The position numbers and the translations under genes were made by a program. 51,018 bases of DNA. It comes from Candidatus Shapirobacteria bacterium. GTDB lineage: Bacteria; Patescibacteriota; Microgenomatia; UBA12405. How positions within the stretch are numbered: position 1 is the stretch's first letter; each line of letters opens with the position of its first letter. Under the pieces are notes generated by a model. It was not told the DNA's origin. It was given only the letters and a program-made list of their open reading frames with translations, and made no database searches. The stretch is from the NCBI GenBank assembly GCA_017991615.1, contig JAGOQF010000001.1, positions 1 to 51,018 on the forward strand, read 5' to 3'. This document shows, piece by piece, positions 3,933 through 33,009 of the stretch.

Positions 3933-4619
3933 TTATACTAAATTATTTAAAATTTTGGTAGCTTCAATCGAGGCGGCTTCTTCAGCTTTTTGTTTGGAGT
4001 TGCCTTGACCTTTGGCGATAAGCTGGTTGTCTAGGAAAACACCAACACTAAAAACTTTTTGGTGATCCGGGCCTGATTCTGACAGGGTTTTGTATTTTGG
4101 AGTGATGCCTTTTTTAGCTTGGGCAATTTCTTGAAAAACACTTTTGGGGTCTTTGTAGATTTTTTTTGAAGATAATTTGGTAATGCTAGTCTCAAGAAAT
4201 TTGTCTAAGAATTTAAAAGCTGGGGATAATCCCCCATCAAGATAAATGGCGCCGGTGACGGCTTCAAAGGTGTCGGCTAAAATAGATTGATTGTGGCGGC
4301 CTTGATGACTTTCTTCGCCCCGGGATAAAAAGATAAATTTACCCAGATTAAATTTTTCTGAAACTTTGGCCAGATTTTGAGTGCAAACAATTAAAGCTCG
4401 GAGGTTGGTTAACTTGCCTTCGTCAAATTGATTAAATCGATTGAAAAGTCTGTCGGAGACCCAAAGTTCCAAGACGGCATCGCCTAGGAATTCATAAGTT
4501 TCATTGGATTGATTGAATTTTGATTGTTCATTGAGAAAAGACCGATGAACTAAAGCTTGCTGAAGTTTTGATTTGTCGGTGAATGTGTAGCCGATGAGTT
4601 GTTGAAGTTGATTAATCAT
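3933..4619 (-). CDS. rnc: Ribonuclease III
   Basis: NETYEFLGDAVL signature and C-terminal dsRBD (DPKS.FQE…GPDHQKVF…SKQKAEEAAS); real start is ATG 4619, the rest of the tracked ORF is nusB in another frame. Confidence 0.95.
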   Translation of the reverse strand: MINQLQQLIGYTFTDKSKLQQALVHRSFLNEQSKFNQSNETYEFLGDAVLELWVSDRLFNRFNQFDEGKLTNLRALIVCTQNLAKVSEKFNLGKFIFLSRGEESHQGRHNQSILADTFEAVTGAIYLDGGLSPAFKFLDKFLETSITKLSSKKIYKDPKSVFQEIAQAKKGITPKYKTLSESGPDHQKVFSVGVFLDNQLIAKGQGNSKQKAEEAASIEATKILNNLV

Positions 4620-4977
4620 AGGATGATTTCTTTTTGAGAGCGCCGCCAATGACTCCGTTGACAAAACTGGAGCTAGTATTAGTGCCGTATTCTTTGGCAA
4701 TTTCAATGGCTTCGTCGATGATAACTTTTTCAGGGTTTTGTTTGAGATAAAATAGTTCCCAGAGAGCATAACGGAGGATATTGAGATCAACTTTGTTGAT
4801 TTTGTCGATAGGCCATTTGGGAGCATTTTCTTGGATAATAGTGTCGATTTTGGGGATGGCTTTGATGATATCTTTGGTCTCGGGGGTGGTAGGGCCTGAT
4901 CCTCCCAAACTCCAAGCAAACAAGGCTTGGATGTTGGCAATTCGTTTTAGATGGCGGGGGTCAAATTTGTTTTTCAC
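4612..4977 (-). CDS. nusB: Transcription antitermination factor NusB
   Basis: W..DKINKVDLNILR.ALWEL…VIIDEAIEIAKEYG…FVNGVIG. Confidence 0.9.
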   Translation of the reverse strand: MKNKFDPRHLKRIANIQALFAWSLGGSGPTTPETKDIIKAIPKIDTIIQENAPKWPIDKINKVDLNILRYALWELFYLKQNPEKVIIDEAIEIAKEYGTNTSSSFVNGVIGGALKKKSSYD

Positions 4978-23480: not shown

Positions 23481-24101
23481 ATGAGTATGGAAAGGTTAAT
23501 AAACCGGTTTAAAAAGGTGACAGTTTCGATGTTGGTGATGGTTTTTGGAGTGGTGATATTTTTTTGGGAATTGAACTATTTGGGACAGGTAAGTGAAAAA
23601 AAAGACGTTTCTAAAGTTTTGGGTGAGAGTAAGGTGTTAGACTTAACTATTGTAGGGTTGGAGGATAATGTTGATCAGATTAAAGTGAGAGAAACTATTG
23701 CTTCTGAAGATGCCAGACCAGTGATTATCAGAAAATATTTGGAAAAATATAAATCGCCTTTAGCTCCTTACTCTGATTTGATTTATCAAATTTCAAATGA
23801 TTACGGGTTTGAGTATTATTGGATAGTGGCCATAGCTCAGCAAGAGTCTAATTTGTGTAAAAAAATTCCTGAAGGGTCTCATAATTGTTGGGGATATGGA
23901 ATTCACAAAAGAGGAACTTTAAAATTTGAAAATTATGAGTTAGCTATAAAAAGTTATGCCAATTATTTAAAACGAGAGTATTTTGATAAAGGTTTAAATA
24001 CTCCGGAGTTGATTATGAAAAAGTATTGTCCAGGTTCTAACGGTTCTTGGGCAAAAGGGGTTTGGCAATTTATAAACGAGATGGAAAATGGTGATTTTTG
24101 A
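23481..24101 (+). CDS. Membrane-anchored lysozyme-fold / glucosaminidase-like protein
   Basis: N-terminal TM; VAIAQQESNL…NCWGYG…YCP…W pattern. Confidence 0.55.
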   Translation: MSMERLINRFKKVTVSMLVMVFGVVIFFWELNYLGQVSEKKDVSKVLGESKVLDLTIVGLEDNVDQIKVRETIASEDARPVIIRKYLEKYKSPLAPYSDLIYQISNDYGFEYYWIVAIAQQESNLCKKIPEGSHNCWGYGIHKRGTLKFENYELAIKSYANYLKREYFDKGLNTPELIMKKYCPGSNGSWAKGVWQFINEMENGDF

Positions 24102-24120: not shown

Positions 24121-24149
24121 TTGACATGTATATAATATTTTGATATACT
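24121..24149 (+). promoter_or_regulatory. Near-consensus sigma70 promoter upstream of efp
   Basis: TTGACA (24121-24126), 17-nt spacer, TATACT (24144-24149). Confidence 0.75.
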
Positions 24150-24223
24150 ACATATTAGATCCTGGGGTGGCTCCTCTAAAAAGCATGCTCTGGGATTTTT
24201 TTTGTGCTAAAATTCAATTTATT

Positions 24224-24787
24224 ATGGCAGTAATATCAACATCTCAGTTTAAACGAGGAATTTATATTATTTTTCAGAATGAACCCCATATGATTATGGA
24301 CACTTCATTTGTGTCGCCGGGAAAAGGTTCGGCATTTTACAGGACTAAACTAAAGAATCTCTATACAGGGAGAATAATAGAATATACTTATAAGTCGGGA
24401 GAGAAAGTTGAAGAAGTGTTGGTAGAAACTCATGAAGCGGAGTATTCTTATTTTGACGGTTCGAACTATGTGTTTATCGAACCGAGAACTTTTGAACAAT
24501 ACATGGTGCCGGTAGAAATTGTGGGAGAGGATAGGGTATATTTGAAGGAAGGGTTGCTTTACAGAATAAAATTTTATGAAGAAACTCCGGTGGGAATTAG
24601 TTTACCAAAGACAATTGCTTATACGGTGGTTGAGGCTGAAAATTCGGTAAAGGGAGATACAGCGACTAATGCTACAAAACTGGCGGTGTTGGATACTGGA
24701 TTAAAGGTGCAAGTGCCATTGTTTATTAAAACTGGTGAGGAAATTTTGGTGAGCACAGAAACGGGAGCTTATTTATCACGGAAGTAA
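24224..24787 (+). CDS. efp: Elongation factor P
   Basis: SPGKGSAF loop, GDTA..ATK.A.L.TG..VQVPLFIK.GE; real start is ATG 24224. Confidence 0.96.
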   Translation: MAVISTSQFKRGIYIIFQNEPHMIMDTSFVSPGKGSAFYRTKLKNLYTGRIIEYTYKSGEKVEEVLVETHEAEYSYFDGSNYVFIEPRTFEQYMVPVEIVGEDRVYLKEGLLYRIKFYEETPVGISLPKTIAYTVVEAENSVKGDTATNATKLAVLDTGLKVQVPLFIKTGEEILVSTETGAYLSRK

Positions 24788-24820
24788 GATATTTGCTAAA
24801 ATACGAGGTGAGTTGATAAT

Positions 24821-24893
24821 GGGTTTGTAGCTCAGTTGGTAGAGCGGTCGCCTCTTAAGCGATTGGTCGCGGGTTCGAGTCCCGCCGGACCCA
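24821..24893 (+). tRNA. tRNA-Lys(CTT)
   Basis: GTCGC-CT CTT AA-GCGAT anticodon arm; TTCGAGT T-loop. Confidence 0.95.
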
Positions 24894-24898
24894 CATAT

Positions 24899-24972
24899 GT
24901 CCCCATAGCTCAGTTGGATAGAGCGTCTCCCTTCTAAGGAGAAGGTCGCAGGTCCGATCCCTGCTGGGGATA
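24899..24972 (+). tRNA. tRNA-Arg(TCT)
   Basis: TCTCC-CT TCT AA-GGAGA anticodon arm; atypical T-loop TCCGATC. Confidence 0.9.
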
Positions 24973-24988
24973 CTTAGAGGTAATTTGA

Positions 24989-25060
24989 GCGCCTATAGCT
25001 CAATGGATAGAGTACTAGTCTTCGGAACTAGTGATGGGGGTTCGATTCCCTCTAGGCGTA
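24989..25060 (+). tRNA. tRNA-Arg(TCG)
   Basis: CTAGT-CT TCG GA-ACTAG anticodon arm. Confidence 0.93.
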
Positions 25061-25110
25061 CTGATTTAATATAGATATTTTAAAATAACCAAAGTTCGTT
25101 AAAATAAATT

Positions 25111-25180
25111 GTTGACCCCTGAGATCTGGGGCCTCGGTATTACATTAAGTAGTGCTGGGCACCAGATTTGAGGGGTTAAT
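25111..25180 (+). ncRNA. Putative 70-nt long-hairpin ncRNA of unknown family
   Basis: About 30 base pairs including 6 G-U, with 2 mismatches, 1 bulge and an ATTAA loop; TAAAAT at 25100-25105 just upstream. Confidence 0.5.
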
Positions 25181-25184
25181 TTTG

Positions 25185-25266
25185 GCCGCAGTGTTGAAAT
25201 TGGTAGACAAGCACGGCTTAGGACCGTGTGGGGTAACCCATGGAGGTTCGAGTCCTCTCTGCGGCA
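25185..25266 (+). tRNA. tRNA-Leu(TAG)
   Basis: CACGG-CT TAG GA-CCGTG anticodon arm; long variable arm. Confidence 0.95.
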
Positions 25267-25289
25267 CTTTGTTTTTATTTAGAGTAATA

Positions 25290-25613
25290 ATGAAAAGTAA
25301 AAACGTAAAGTTAGTTGTTTTTGTACCACTTACTCACGTTGATGTAGTACGTCAGGCGCTTGGAGAAGTCGGAGCGGGGAAAATTGGCAATTATGATTTT
25401 TGTTCTTTCTCTTCTCGTGGTGTTGGTCGATTCCGTGGAAATGAAAAGACAAATCCTACTATTGGTGAAACCGGTAAATATGAAGCAGTAGAAGAAGAAA
25501 AGATCGAAGTGGTTGTATCGAGAAAGATTTTAAAAGAAGTTGTTAAAAAAGTAAAAAGTGTTCATCCTTATGAAGAAGTTGCTTTTGATATTTATCCTTT
25601 AGAGGATTTGTAA
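25290..25613 (+). CDS. YqfO/NIF3 insertion-domain-like small protein
   Basis: KLVVFVP…GAGKIGNYDFCSF…G.FR…E.KIEV…HPYEEVAFDIYPL; real start is ATG 25290. Confidence 0.85.
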   Translation: MKSKNVKLVVFVPLTHVDVVRQALGEVGAGKIGNYDFCSFSSRGVGRFRGNEKTNPTIGETGKYEAVEEEKIEVVVSRKILKEVVKKVKSVHPYEEVAFDIYPLEDL

Positions 25614-25691: not shown

Positions 25692-26810
25692 ATGAAGAAA
25701 ATAAAGATTTTGGTATTTTTGGCAGCAGTGTTAATTGGTTTAAGGTTAGTATCAACCGTGAAGGCAGAATCGAAGCTAGAAAGTTTGATGGTGGCTGGGG
25801 AAAATGTCAATACGGTAGGAAAGTTAGAGGGGACTTCGTTTCAGGCTGGGAAAAATATAAAAATAAATGCTGTAATTGACGGGATATTGTTCACTGCTGG
25901 AGAAAATGTATCTTTGGGTGGTGAAAGTGATTATTTGTTTGCTGCTGGTAGAACAGTCAGTCTGGAAGGTGAGGTGGTTAAAGATGCTTTTATGGCTGGA
26001 GCGAATGTTAGTTTGGAAAATGTGGTATTGGGAAGAGATGTTTATTTGGCTGGGGAAAATGTATCTTTGTCAGGAGATTTTGGGAGAAATGTATATGTTG
26101 GTGGTTCGGTAGTATCACTAGATGGAAATTATAAAGGTGATGTAGTGATTGAGGCTGGTAAGATTAAAATTCTTGATGGAGCTAAAATTGCTGGTAAATT
26201 GAAATATAATGATACAGCAGAGGTAGAGTTGTCAGATAAGGCGGTGATTGGGAACAAAGAGACTTTTAAAGGGGGTGTGGTTGATGATAATAAAGAAAAT
26301 ATTCGGGAAGTGGGTTTTAGGTCTGTTTTGTTTAGACTGATTAATGGTTTAGTTTTGGGTTGGTTAATGATTTGGTTGATGCCGTATGTATTTGAAAAAT
26401 TGGTTAAGAAAAATAAACCGCTAACTTTTAAGTTAGTAACTAAAAGGTTTTTTTGGGGTTTATTATGGTTGATAGGTTTGCCGTTTATTTTTGGACTGTC
26501 TTTGATAACTATGGTGGGAATGAGGACTGGATTAGCAATAATATTTATTTATGGATTGGTAATTAGCTTATCGGGAATATTAGTAGGTTATTTGATTGGA
26601 TGGAAGTTAAATTTGGTGGATCGTGAAAGAGTGGTTGATAAATATGCTAATTTTGGGATTGGTTATACAATTTTGACTTTAATTAGAAATATTCCAGGAT
26701 TTGGTTGGGTGGTGTCGTTTTTGATGGTGGTGGTGGGTGTAGGTTTAGGGTTTAATTTAATGATTGATCGTCGAAAAAGAATGACCTCGGTAATAAAATC
26801 AGAAAAATAG
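25692..26810 (+). CDS. Exported beta-helix (polymer-forming cytoskeletal-like repeat) protein with C-terminal multi-TM domain
   Basis: Signal peptide, repeated AGENVSL.G.V..D motifs, about 5 TM helices at the C-terminus. Confidence 0.7.
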   Translation: MKKIKILVFLAAVLIGLRLVSTVKAESKLESLMVAGENVNTVGKLEGTSFQAGKNIKINAVIDGILFTAGENVSLGGESDYLFAAGRTVSLEGEVVKDAFMAGANVSLENVVLGRDVYLAGENVSLSGDFGRNVYVGGSVVSLDGNYKGDVVIEAGKIKILDGAKIAGKLKYNDTAEVELSDKAVIGNKETFKGGVVDDNKENIREVGFRSVLFRLINGLVLGWLMIWLMPYVFEKLVKKNKPLTFKLVTKRFFWGLLWLIGLPFIFGLSLITMVGMRTGLAIIFIYGLVISLSGILVGYLIGWKLNLVDRERVVDKYANFGIGYTILTLIRNIPGFGWVVSFLMVVVGVGLGFNLMIDRRKRMTSVIKSEK

Positions 26811-26811
26811 T

Positions 26812-28191
26812 TTACTTTTTATGAAATAAATTTTTGATTTTGGACCAAAGATCGATTTTGGGATGGTAAAAGGTGGAATTTTCAGAAAAAAGGTTGATTT
26901 CGGTTTTAGGTAGGCCTTCCCATGAAAGGTAAATTTTTTTGGAGGCAGAAGGGTTTATTTTAAATTTGAAAGGAAAAATTTTGATTTGATCAGGATAGAT
27001 TCTGTCTGAAGGACTGGTGCAGATTTGATCAATTTCAATGGAGTCTGAAGCTGTCGGTTGGAGGCAAAAGTTAGTTTCTCCCCAAACTGATTGACCGATA
27101 TTTTTGAGGCTGATTTGAGCAGAATATTCGTGATTAGCAAAAATAAGGAAAGGAATTTGACTTTTGTAGAGTTCATATTTAGTAATTTGTTCGGGAGAAT
27201 TGGTTAATTTGGGAGTATTAACTACTTTTTGATATTCGGGATAAAGTTGTTCGTTTTGATCTAACCAAGAAAAGTGATCAAACGGGGGTTGGGGATAGTT
27301 GTAAATAAAAGGGGTGACAGCGGCAATTCTTTTGTCTGCTGACCAAATTTGATAAGCGTCAAGTAAAAATTGGGAAGTGGTTTTGGTAGTGTAAAAATTA
27401 TTTTTTTGACTAATCCCCTCTCGGTGAGGCCAACCGGTTTCGGTGATAAAAATGGGAAGATCTTTTTTGACTCCTAGTTTTTTGAGAGTTTCTATCTCCC
27501 ATTGGTAGCCAAGGATACTATGTTGGCCGGTATGGTAAGGTTTGCCAATAAAACCATGATTAGGATAGGAGTGAGATGCAAGGCCGTCGAGATAGTCAAA
27601 AAATTCTGGTTTATAATCATAAATTTGTTGGTAAAAAGATTTGGCGGAGAGATATTTGGGTAAAGCGTTGGGGGCGGCCAGGTCGAGAGCACCGTTGAGG
27701 ATAAAAAAATTAGGATTGAGAGATTTGAATTTATTAATGGCATAGAGACTAATGTCAACGTAGTTTTTGACATCGACCTGGCCGCCCCATTCTTGACCAT
27801 GATTGATTTCATTAAATAAGGAGATATATTGAGTTTTGATTGGCCAGTTGAGAGAGTGAAGAAAATTAGCCAAGTTATCAATGTCAGAAAAAGTGGGAGT
27901 TTTCCAATTACCGTTGTCAGAATAGGTGGCTAATCTGATAATAGGGATAAGGTGGTATCGGCGACAGTTGTCAAAGAAATCTTGCCAGGTGCGGTAGTCA
28001 AGTTGGTCGGTGCGAATAACAATGGTAACCCAACCCCAGTCCCCACCATTACTGTTAATAATGTCTTTGGCGGAGATGAGATCTTGTGTTTGGGTTAGAT
28101 GGAGGCCAAAGATATTTGGGGATGCTAAAATAGATTTATTAAAAATAACCCCAAAAAATAGAAATAAAATTAAAAAGAGAATTTTTTTCAA
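26812..28191 (-). CDS. Exported clan GH-A glycoside hydrolase (GH5/GH39-like) with C-terminal Ig-like domain
   Basis: Signal peptide; FNEIN acid/base motif, SHSYP, and FITETGW nucleophile motif. Confidence 0.7.
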   Translation of the reverse strand: MKKILFLILFLFFGVIFNKSILASPNIFGLHLTQTQDLISAKDIINSNGGDWGWVTIVIRTDQLDYRTWQDFFDNCRRYHLIPIIRLATYSDNGNWKTPTFSDIDNLANFLHSLNWPIKTQYISLFNEINHGQEWGGQVDVKNYVDISLYAINKFKSLNPNFFILNGALDLAAPNALPKYLSAKSFYQQIYDYKPEFFDYLDGLASHSYPNHGFIGKPYHTGQHSILGYQWEIETLKKLGVKKDLPIFITETGWPHREGISQKNNFYTTKTTSQFLLDAYQIWSADKRIAAVTPFIYNYPQPPFDHFSWLDQNEQLYPEYQKVVNTPKLTNSPEQITKYELYKSQIPFLIFANHEYSAQISLKNIGQSVWGETNFCLQPTASDSIEIDQICTSPSDRIYPDQIKIFPFKFKINPSASKKIYLSWEGLPKTEINLFSENSTFYHPKIDLWSKIKNLFHKK

Positions 28192-32725: not shown

Positions 32726-32767
32726 CTGGATGATATTTAGTATTAAACAAATATAATCCTACTTTAA

Positions 32768-32840
32768 AATTTACGGGGATTGGCGCCCGCCTGCAAAAGC
32801 TACCGCCTTAGGCGGTTGTTGGCAGGCAATTGGCTAGCGT
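32768..32840 (+). repeat. Duplicated 5' fragment of tRNA-Pro interrupted by a 41-nt nested palindrome
   Basis: AATTTACGGGGATTGGCGC + insert 32787-32827 + AATTGGCTAGCGT; the flanks are identical to 32856-32887. Confidence 0.85.
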
Positions 32841-32861
32841 TCAATCCTAATTAACAATTTA

Positions 32862-32935: not shown

Positions 32936-32938
32936 CTA

Positions 32939-32991
32939 ATACAGGATGAGAAGTTTATCCGCCGTCTGGCGGAAATCCTGTATCCCCGACT
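32939..32991 (+). repeat. Hairpin carrying a duplicated tRNA-Pro 3' end
   Basis: AATCCTGTATCCCCGACT at 32974-32991 equals 32920-32937; ATACAGGAT/ATCCTGTAT outer stem, TCCGCC-gtct-GGCGGA inner stem. Confidence 0.85.
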
Positions 32992-33009
32992 TTGGTAAAA
33001 TAGATTAAC

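Follow-up and report, generated by a model that had tools for sequence, protein, structure and literature searches.

A 70-nt hairpin embedded in a tRNA cluster of a Candidatus Shapirobacteria bacterium is a new structured RNA of the tRNA-operon spacer kind, absent from Rfam and confined to a single genus, and its structure is under selection as RNA. The preferred reading, which is given about an even chance, is that the hairpin constitutes a structured, accessory module of a polycistronic tRNA transcript, from which it would be excised before a dsRNA-specific protein cleaves or binds it. The features on which the argument draws are listed below; the window denotes the whole analyzed stretch of 51,018 nucleotides.

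3933..4940, minus strand: RNase III gene rnc; residues 123-330 of the open frame comprise a nuclease domain and a dsRNA-binding motif
24140-24787: efp, directly ahead of the tRNA cluster
24773..24802, plus strand: promoter-like site (TTATCA, 18 nt, TG-TAAAAT), before the whole tRNA cluster and just past efp
24821-24894, plus strand: tRNA-Lys(CTT), upstream gene of the cluster
24899-24973, plus strand: tRNA-Arg(TCT), upstream gene of the cluster
24989-25061, plus strand: tRNA-Arg(TCG), nearest gene 5′ of the hairpin
25062..25110, plus strand: AT-rich spacer (14% G+C) with TAAAAT at 25100-25105
25111..25180, plus strand: hairpin of 30 bp with 6 G-U pairs, two 1x1 mismatches, a bulged U, and a 5-nt loop, according to RNAfold and covariance models
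25181..25184, plus strand: 4-nt linker from the stem to the first base of tRNA-Leu(TAG), predicted to stay attached to the hairpin as its 3′ tail once RNase P has cut
25185..25267, plus strand: tRNA-Leu(TAG), constant 3′ neighbor of the hairpin

Fold and covariation of the hairpin

RNAfold pairs positions 25111-25180 end to end. The 30 pairs—13 C-G/G-C, 11 A-U/U-A, and 6 G-U/U-G—reproduce exactly the fold of about 30 bp with six wobbles, two mismatches, and one bulge that an initial annotation of this DNA had described. Both mismatches are 1x1 (G25121/G25170 and G25130/A25161), U25134 forms the bulge, and the loop spans 25144-25148. The minimum free energy amounts to -46.4 kcal/mol, compared with -19.9 +/- 3.0 for 200 dinucleotide shuffles (z -8.9), none of which is as stable, and with just -24.4 for the complementary strand. 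When the organism's own 677-kb assembly (G000) is scanned in 16-nt steps, the hairpin ranks first in stability among 41188 segments of 80 nt (mean -11.85, sd 4.9), the scan covering the plus strand of contigs C1-C18. The second most stable segment, a perfect palindrome of about 29 bp with a free energy of -44.8 kcal/mol, is found outside the window at G000 C1:7329-7408. The G+C content is 50% in the hairpin, 14% in the preceding 49-nt spacer, and 36% in the window, which agrees with the earlier description of a GC-rich element within AT-rich surroundings. Joint folding with both flanking tRNAs leaves the hairpin as an independent domain between two cloverleaves.

Comparison among relatives provides the evidence for selection on this structure. 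In the alignment of hairpins from 20 genomes, standard pairs occupy 96.0% of the 551 pair cells and double changes affect 13 of the 29 pairs, a value reached by none of 500 shuffles, although such shuffle statistics treat related sequences as independent and thereby overstate the support. Sliding the partners by 1-3 columns lowers pairing to 28-47%. The 35 distinct sequences available from genomes and metagenome variants are paired in 96.4% of 1015 cells and share 29 conserved pairs, 13 of which again carry compensatory double changes; G-U combinations occupy 182 cells (18% of the pair cells) as against 15 for A-C. Scores of the covariance models are likewise strand-specific, reaching 65-90 bits on the plus strand versus 30-52 bits on the minus strand. 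It follows from the excess of G-U over A-C and from the gap in scores that the constraint acts on the RNA of the tRNA strand and not on a DNA palindrome. Together with the compensatory changes, these values bear out the initial proposal of selection on a plus-strand RNA.

Constraint is unevenly distributed along the hairpin. The basal stem undergoes free compensatory change, the AU-rich loop of 4-6 nt exists in 15 versions among the 35 sequences, and the tail is variable. Two inner boxes are all but invariant; in one, 5′ AUCUGG pairs with CCAG, and in the other CGGUAU pairs with ACUGG. Beyond the 20 genomes found by model alone, this invariance is inflated by scans that required the boxes. Three wobbles are close to fixation, namely G26-U47 (34 of 35 sequences), U8-G63 (33 of 35), and U30-G43 (31 of 35).

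Distribution, genomic setting, and history

A BLAST search of 104 genomes of the family recovers six clear relatives beyond the window, all of them from its own genus; the remaining matches, many and 14-22 nt long, are noise. Two covariance models, the first built from seven sequences and the second from twenty, detect one significant copy of the hairpin in 20 of the 38 species genomes of the genus and none in 66 genomes representing 28 sister genera. The hairpin of the window obtains 78-89 bits with these models. Second-best matches in the 20 hairpin-bearing genomes have E values of 0.05 or worse, and BLAST within the organism's own genome also yields a single copy. A search for homologues by BLAST and covariance models had been recommended by the initial annotation; homologues carrying compensatory changes do exist, all within the genus.

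Larger collections were scanned with a pattern that required the invariant boxes. Among genomes sampled at one per prokaryote species, 44 matches were obtained, 31 of which are chance occurrences, while 13 fit the model. These 13 duplicate scores of the genus search and add no further lineage; they are labeled Candidatus Shapirobacteria (three), Candidatus Parcubacteria (two), and "uncultured Gammaproteobacteria" (eight), the last being taken as a loose label. The metagenome scan returned 64 matches, comprising 39 chance occurrences and 25 true loci, and contributed 16 new distinct variants. No hairpin match was found in the phage collection. Upstream of tRNA-Leu(TAG) in 13 genomes of other genera, the spacer is short or unrelated and holds no hairpin (20 stretches were taken, of which seven precede tRNA-Leu(CAG) and were left uncounted).

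The position of the hairpin relative to the tRNA genes is highly constant on its 3′ side. A tRNA-Leu(TAG) sequence, either the gene or a disrupted 5′ copy, follows directly in all 20 genomes of the genus. The gene proper begins 0-2 nt past the 71-nt model in 15 of them; in G101 the 5′ part of tRNA-Leu is followed by a run of N; and in the other four a disrupted partial tRNA-Leu 5′ copy intervenes, and the real gene follows after another 63-80 nt. In 22 of the 25 metagenome loci, tRNA-Leu(TAG) is located 6 nt or less downstream. The linker between stem and tRNA-Leu measures 2-5 nt in relatives and is not conserved in sequence. On the 5′ side, the stem starts 1-8 nt past tRNA-Lys(CTT) in 12 of the 20 genomes and follows a 3′ fragment of tRNA-Lys in three others, the usual order in relatives being Arg-Arg-Lys-hairpin-Leu. 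The AT-rich spacer with its TAAAAT box is found in two of the 20 genomes, G000, to which the window belongs, and G101, the closest of its relatives to carry a hairpin; a metagenome variant almost identical to them shows a similar gap, of 30 nt, behind tRNA-Lys.

The tRNA clusters contain further irregularities. Several genera have a similar disrupted 5′ copy of tRNA-Leu in front of tRNA-Leu(TAG). GC-rich palindromes of 14-40 nt occur in other tRNA spacers (window positions 32727-32861 and 32937-33009; G000 C12:7005-7167; L003, L004, and L007), where they sit in the D-arm, anticodon, or T region of partial tRNA-Leu or tRNA-Lys copies. These palindromes look like a small mobile family or like scars of tRNA-targeting elements. 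Short ORF remnants located between tRNA-Lys and the hairpin in G089 and G073 resemble, by eye, the C-terminus of a small GIY-YIG-type nuclease. Four ORFs of 106-459 aa near the cluster in the window (23481-24101, 25293-25613, 25692-26810, and 26812-28191) have no Pfam match at E<=0.001.

No model match is obtained in 18 of the 38 genomes of the genus. In ten of these, 3-28 nt separate tRNA-Lys or tRNA-Arg from tRNA-Leu(TAG), with an unrelated 85 nt in one case; in five, the contig ends inside tRNA-Leu, and in three, tRNA-Leu(TAG) itself has no match. Given these last eight genomes, the true ratio is about 20 of 30 assessable genomes. The contigs of G077, G087, G093, G095, and G100 end at approximately base 29 of tRNA-Leu(TAG), which could be explained by a repeated partial 5′ copy of tRNA-Leu that interrupts assembly there. 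A quick maximum-likelihood tree of one 366-aa GTPase from 37 genomes, to be taken as a rough guide only, places hairpin-bearing genomes in both of its deepest clades, implies at least five changes between presence and absence, and groups the hairpin variants as it groups the proteins. Identity in this conserved GTPase ranges from 72 to 89% across the genus. The simplest reading is a single ancient gain in the ancestor of the genus, followed by vertical inheritance and several later deletions. Since sister species do without it, the hairpin is accessory and not needed for tRNA processing.

Dispensability, with at least four or five losses, would also be expected if the hairpin were an inert, self-insulating spacer, that is, a palindromic insertion that occurred once between tRNA-Lys and tRNA-Leu, whose arms are kept paired to spare the neighboring pre-tRNAs mispairing with the 70 additional bases, and which has neither a partner nor a function. 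The free variation of loop and tails, the folding of the hairpin apart from the tRNAs, and the tendency of tRNA clusters in this family to gather other palindromic inserts and partial tRNA copies are all compatible with this explanation. However, insulation alone would permit G-U pairs to be replaced by G-C or A-U, yet the wobbles are kept and the two boxes do not vary, an argument somewhat weakened by the box-requiring search. An inert spacer is therefore regarded as possible but unlikely.

A second explanation sees in the hairpin the relic of a mobile palindromic DNA of the MITE or REP-like type, preserved by DNA-level processes such as template switching. Correia elements of Neisseria and elements of the REP and MITE types are palindromic repeats that are co-transcribed and cut by RNase III; they resemble the hairpin in being palindromic intergenic inserts whose presence varies among relatives, in this case at one site within one genus. 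Empty sites keep TTAA-like remnants that, read by eye, match the stem ends, and small palindromes as well as nuclease-like ORF remnants are present in the same clusters. The stem ends are TTAA-like and themselves palindromic, and a target-site duplication would be indistinguishable from the stem. In contrast to the repeats named above, the hairpin is syntenic, vertically inherited, and single-copy, with no second significant match in any of the 20 genomes. The phage collection gives no match, and its variants track the species tree. Moreover, repair would perfect a palindrome, whereas the G-U cells seen here are mismatches at the DNA level and are strand-specific. A mobile relic is accordingly judged a rather poor candidate, less probable than an inert spacer.

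Transcription and RNA identity

Where the stem begins 1-8 nt after tRNA-Lys, as in 12 of the 20 species, no room is left for a promoter of its own. A promoter consensus scan called one site at 24773-24802 and none at the hairpin or in its spacer; a similar box, read by eye, stands ahead of the cluster in relatives. The compact spacing and the sole promoter call before the cluster therefore point to co-transcription with the tRNAs as the general state. It is this arrangement between co-oriented tRNA genes, with no space for a separate promoter or terminator, that characterizes a tRNA-operon spacer RNA.

The initial annotation had instead placed a transcription start at the base of the stem, directed by the TAAAAT box that ends 5 nt upstream of it. 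The hairpin would then be an independent small RNA gene, with 25100-25105 as its own promoter. Box and spacing are indeed present in the window and common to G101. Against this proposal, the spacer is missing in 18 of the 20 hairpin-bearing genomes of the genus, no promoter is called at the box, and no terminator separates the hairpin from tRNA-Leu. The proposed start is thus not upheld as a general feature, and an independent gene appears improbable.

In RNA libraries of two studies, single contigs extend across the hairpin and tRNAs (X16, 24835-25234; X15, 24400-25184); these contigs carry neither strand nor RNA ends, their depth is like that of neighboring protein genes, and carry-over of DNA may have contributed to them. 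Cover is interrupted in X17 over 25063-25215, in X18 after 25165, and in X15 between the end of record 1 at 25184 and the start of the next at 25222. The interruptions are read as assembly breaks in conserved tRNA sequence rather than as RNA ends.

An intrinsic terminator or attenuator limiting read-through into tRNA-Leu(TAG) would find some support in the TTTT that follows the stem in the window and in the AUUU tail of 9 of the 35 variants. The other tails are C-rich or mixed, however, and a terminator scan is empty both at the hairpin and between stem and tRNA-Leu, in line with the initial annotation, which had denied the element terminator character. In addition, tRNA-Leu begins 4 nt further on without a promoter of its own, and contig X16 bridges the stem into this gene. 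Termination is thus a most improbable role.

Searches for known RNA families leave the hairpin unassigned. At the gathering score, Rfam recognizes 13 tRNAs in the whole window and nothing at the hairpin; at E<=10, the hairpin region shows chance-level rows only (a CRISPR repeat model beside the stem at E 3.2 and a plant miRNA model at E 5.2). The cmscan comparison suggested at the outset hence identifies no known family, and the exclusions made there by inspection are sustained by specific models. ARAGORN and RF00005 recognize just the four flanking tRNAs, in agreement with the statement that the element is not tRNA-like. The 6S RNA model RF00013 is unmatched, and the 70-nt, bubble-free hairpin is indeed too short when set against a rod of about 180 nt with a central bubble. 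As had also been noted, the helix-8 motif of SRP RNA is lacking: the loop is variable and AU-rich, and RF00169 does not match. In G000 as a whole, ARAGORN lists 44 tRNAs, no tmRNA, no tRNA-Asn, and one tRNA with a CAT anticodon; the missing RNA genes may reflect assembly gaps or insert-bearing genes overlooked by the finders. No description of the hairpin was found in literature on tRNA-spacer hairpins and SRP in these phyla, which is no proof that it is unpublished.

The small SRP RNA (RF00169) deserves separate mention as a hairpin of similar size. SRP RNA is defined by a conserved helix-8 apical loop and by internal loops that bind the M domain of Ffh. A minimal, divergent SRP (4.5S) RNA could be suspected from the length of about 70 nt and from the fact that RF00169 is missing in this genome and exceeds its cut-off in none of the 104 family genomes. 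Yet neither RF00169 at E<=10 nor RF01854 matches anywhere in the organism's own genome; PF02978 is absent from it, and the DTAGR motif occurs in none of its reading frames. PF00448 was detected in 0 of 104 family, 0 of 81 class, and 0 of 61 phylum genomes sampled, with positive controls scoring in 14 of 14 cases. The hairpin is not SRP RNA because the lineage is without Ffh and FtsY; its loop, moreover, varies and is not a GNRA loop, and half of the genus lacks the element. This identity is rejected and retains virtually no probability. In agreement with this absence, one report describes SRP subunits as missing in many CPR bacteria (PMC8080830). The lack of SRP54-type GTPases and SRP RNA in the lineage is probably known already.

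Proposed processing within the tRNA transcript

As the initial annotation had pointed out, the window also encodes RNase III; its gene on the minus strand (3933-4940) specifies PF14622 and dsrm domains. The open frame comprises 335 aa compared with 227-271 aa in relatives, and its domains begin at residue 123; the real start codon is probably internal. PF14622 is present in 36 of the 38 genomes of the genus, including 19 of the 20 with the hairpin, and was not found in hairpin-bearing G083 (93% complete). RNase III thus occurs in genomes both with and without the hairpin. The RNase P protein RnpA is present in the organism's own genome. RNase P RNA is detected in 35 of the 38 genomes as a short match of about 250-300 nt, mostly under the Rfam cut-off; no match was obtained in the assembly that contains the window, probably owing to a gap there. 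RNase Z was sought with TIGR02651 alone, the best match scoring 21.6 bits against a cut-off of 293. Read by eye, the tRNA genes of the window do not encode CCA.

If the hairpin is a module of the tRNA transcript, its processing can be envisaged as follows. Transcription would start at the promoter after efp and proceed through tRNA-Lys, the two tRNA-Arg genes, the hairpin, and tRNA-Leu(TAG). RNase P would cut between 25184 and 25185, at the 5′ end of tRNA-Leu, and the upstream fragment would then terminate in the hairpin. 3′-end maturation of the preceding tRNA—by whichever enzyme takes this part, no RNase Z being recognized—would then free a nearly fully double-stranded hairpin of about 75 nt. 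The 30-bp stem would be a natural substrate for RNase III, the nuclease encoded in the same window. RNase III requires about 20 bp or more of dsRNA; the stem offers 30 bp in the window and 29 conserved pairs across relatives. RNase III or another dsRNA-binding protein might recognize the stem, and a specific partner is suggested by the two invariant boxes and by the fixation of several G-U wobbles. The hairpin may be an uncharacterized ncRNA or an RNase III processing signal, the two options named by the initial annotation.

A more far-reaching scheme, a bacterial analog of tRNA-punctuated precursor hairpins in which RNase P and 3′ trimming release the dsRNA of about 75 nt, RNase III cuts it at the invariant boxes to give short duplexes or half-stems, and these products themselves are functional, is considered decidedly improbable. 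Candidate roles under this scheme could be the titration of RNase III or another dsRNA-binding protein, or an action on the host cell, these bacteria being episymbiotic and living on a host cell.

Several known systems share features with the hairpin read as a transcript module. The tRNA cluster of phage T4 contains the species 1 and 2 RNAs, stable non-tRNAs of unknown function. They are likewise embedded in, and processed from, the transcript of a tRNA cluster; they differ in having other folds and no sequence relation to the hairpin, for which the phage collection likewise gave no counterpart. The 3′ external transcribed spacer of E. coli glyW-cysT-leuZ reportedly acts as an sRNA sponge (bioRxiv 10.1101/2021.04.25.441314; PMC8166272). 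Both this spacer and the hairpin represent transcribed tRNA-operon spacers that arise, or would arise, as by-products of tRNA end-processing. Known spacer RNAs employ single-stranded seeds together with Hfq, whereas the hairpin is paired throughout and has a variable loop; an antisense action is unlikely for this reason. In murine gammaherpesvirus 68, tRNA-linked pre-miRNA hairpins are said to be released by tRNase Z (PMC4838037; PMC6667617). Here, too, a tRNA is directly joined to a long hairpin, the ends of which are set by tRNA-processing enzymes. The viral system differs in being eukaryotic and transcribed by Pol III, in carrying its hairpin 3′ of a tRNA-like unit, and in relying on Dicer and Argonaute; no machinery of this type is known from these bacteria.

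The processing stems cut by RNase III in rRNA operon spacers offer a parallel to the predicted cleavage. Both they and the hairpin extend over about three helical turns with few mismatches, belong to a stable-RNA operon, and occur where the enzyme is encoded. Unlike such stems, the hairpin is self-contained, brackets no mature RNA, and is not required, and its cleavage is a prediction. In S. aureus, transcripts of rRNA and tRNA operons as well as long hairpins are recovered together with purified RNase III (PMC3386247). Two studies in E. coli, cited in PMC3082872, reportedly describe, to judge by their titles, tRNA-adjacent hairpins as a hindrance to processing by RNase P.

The hairpin thus represents a covariation-supported structured RNA that has been kept in a tRNA operon while a genus diverged, even if some species have lost it. 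The genomes of candidate-phyla bacteria are very small, and not many non-coding RNAs are known from these organisms. If the hairpin is excised and specifically bound or cut, tRNA processing would be used here to make another RNA, and the hairpin would also provide a handle on the specificity of RNase III in a lineage not yet cultivable on its own. As a self-paired spacer and nothing more, it would constitute a tidy case in which compensatory changes accumulate without serving a function. In both cases the hairpin is of narrow reach, being limited to one genus.
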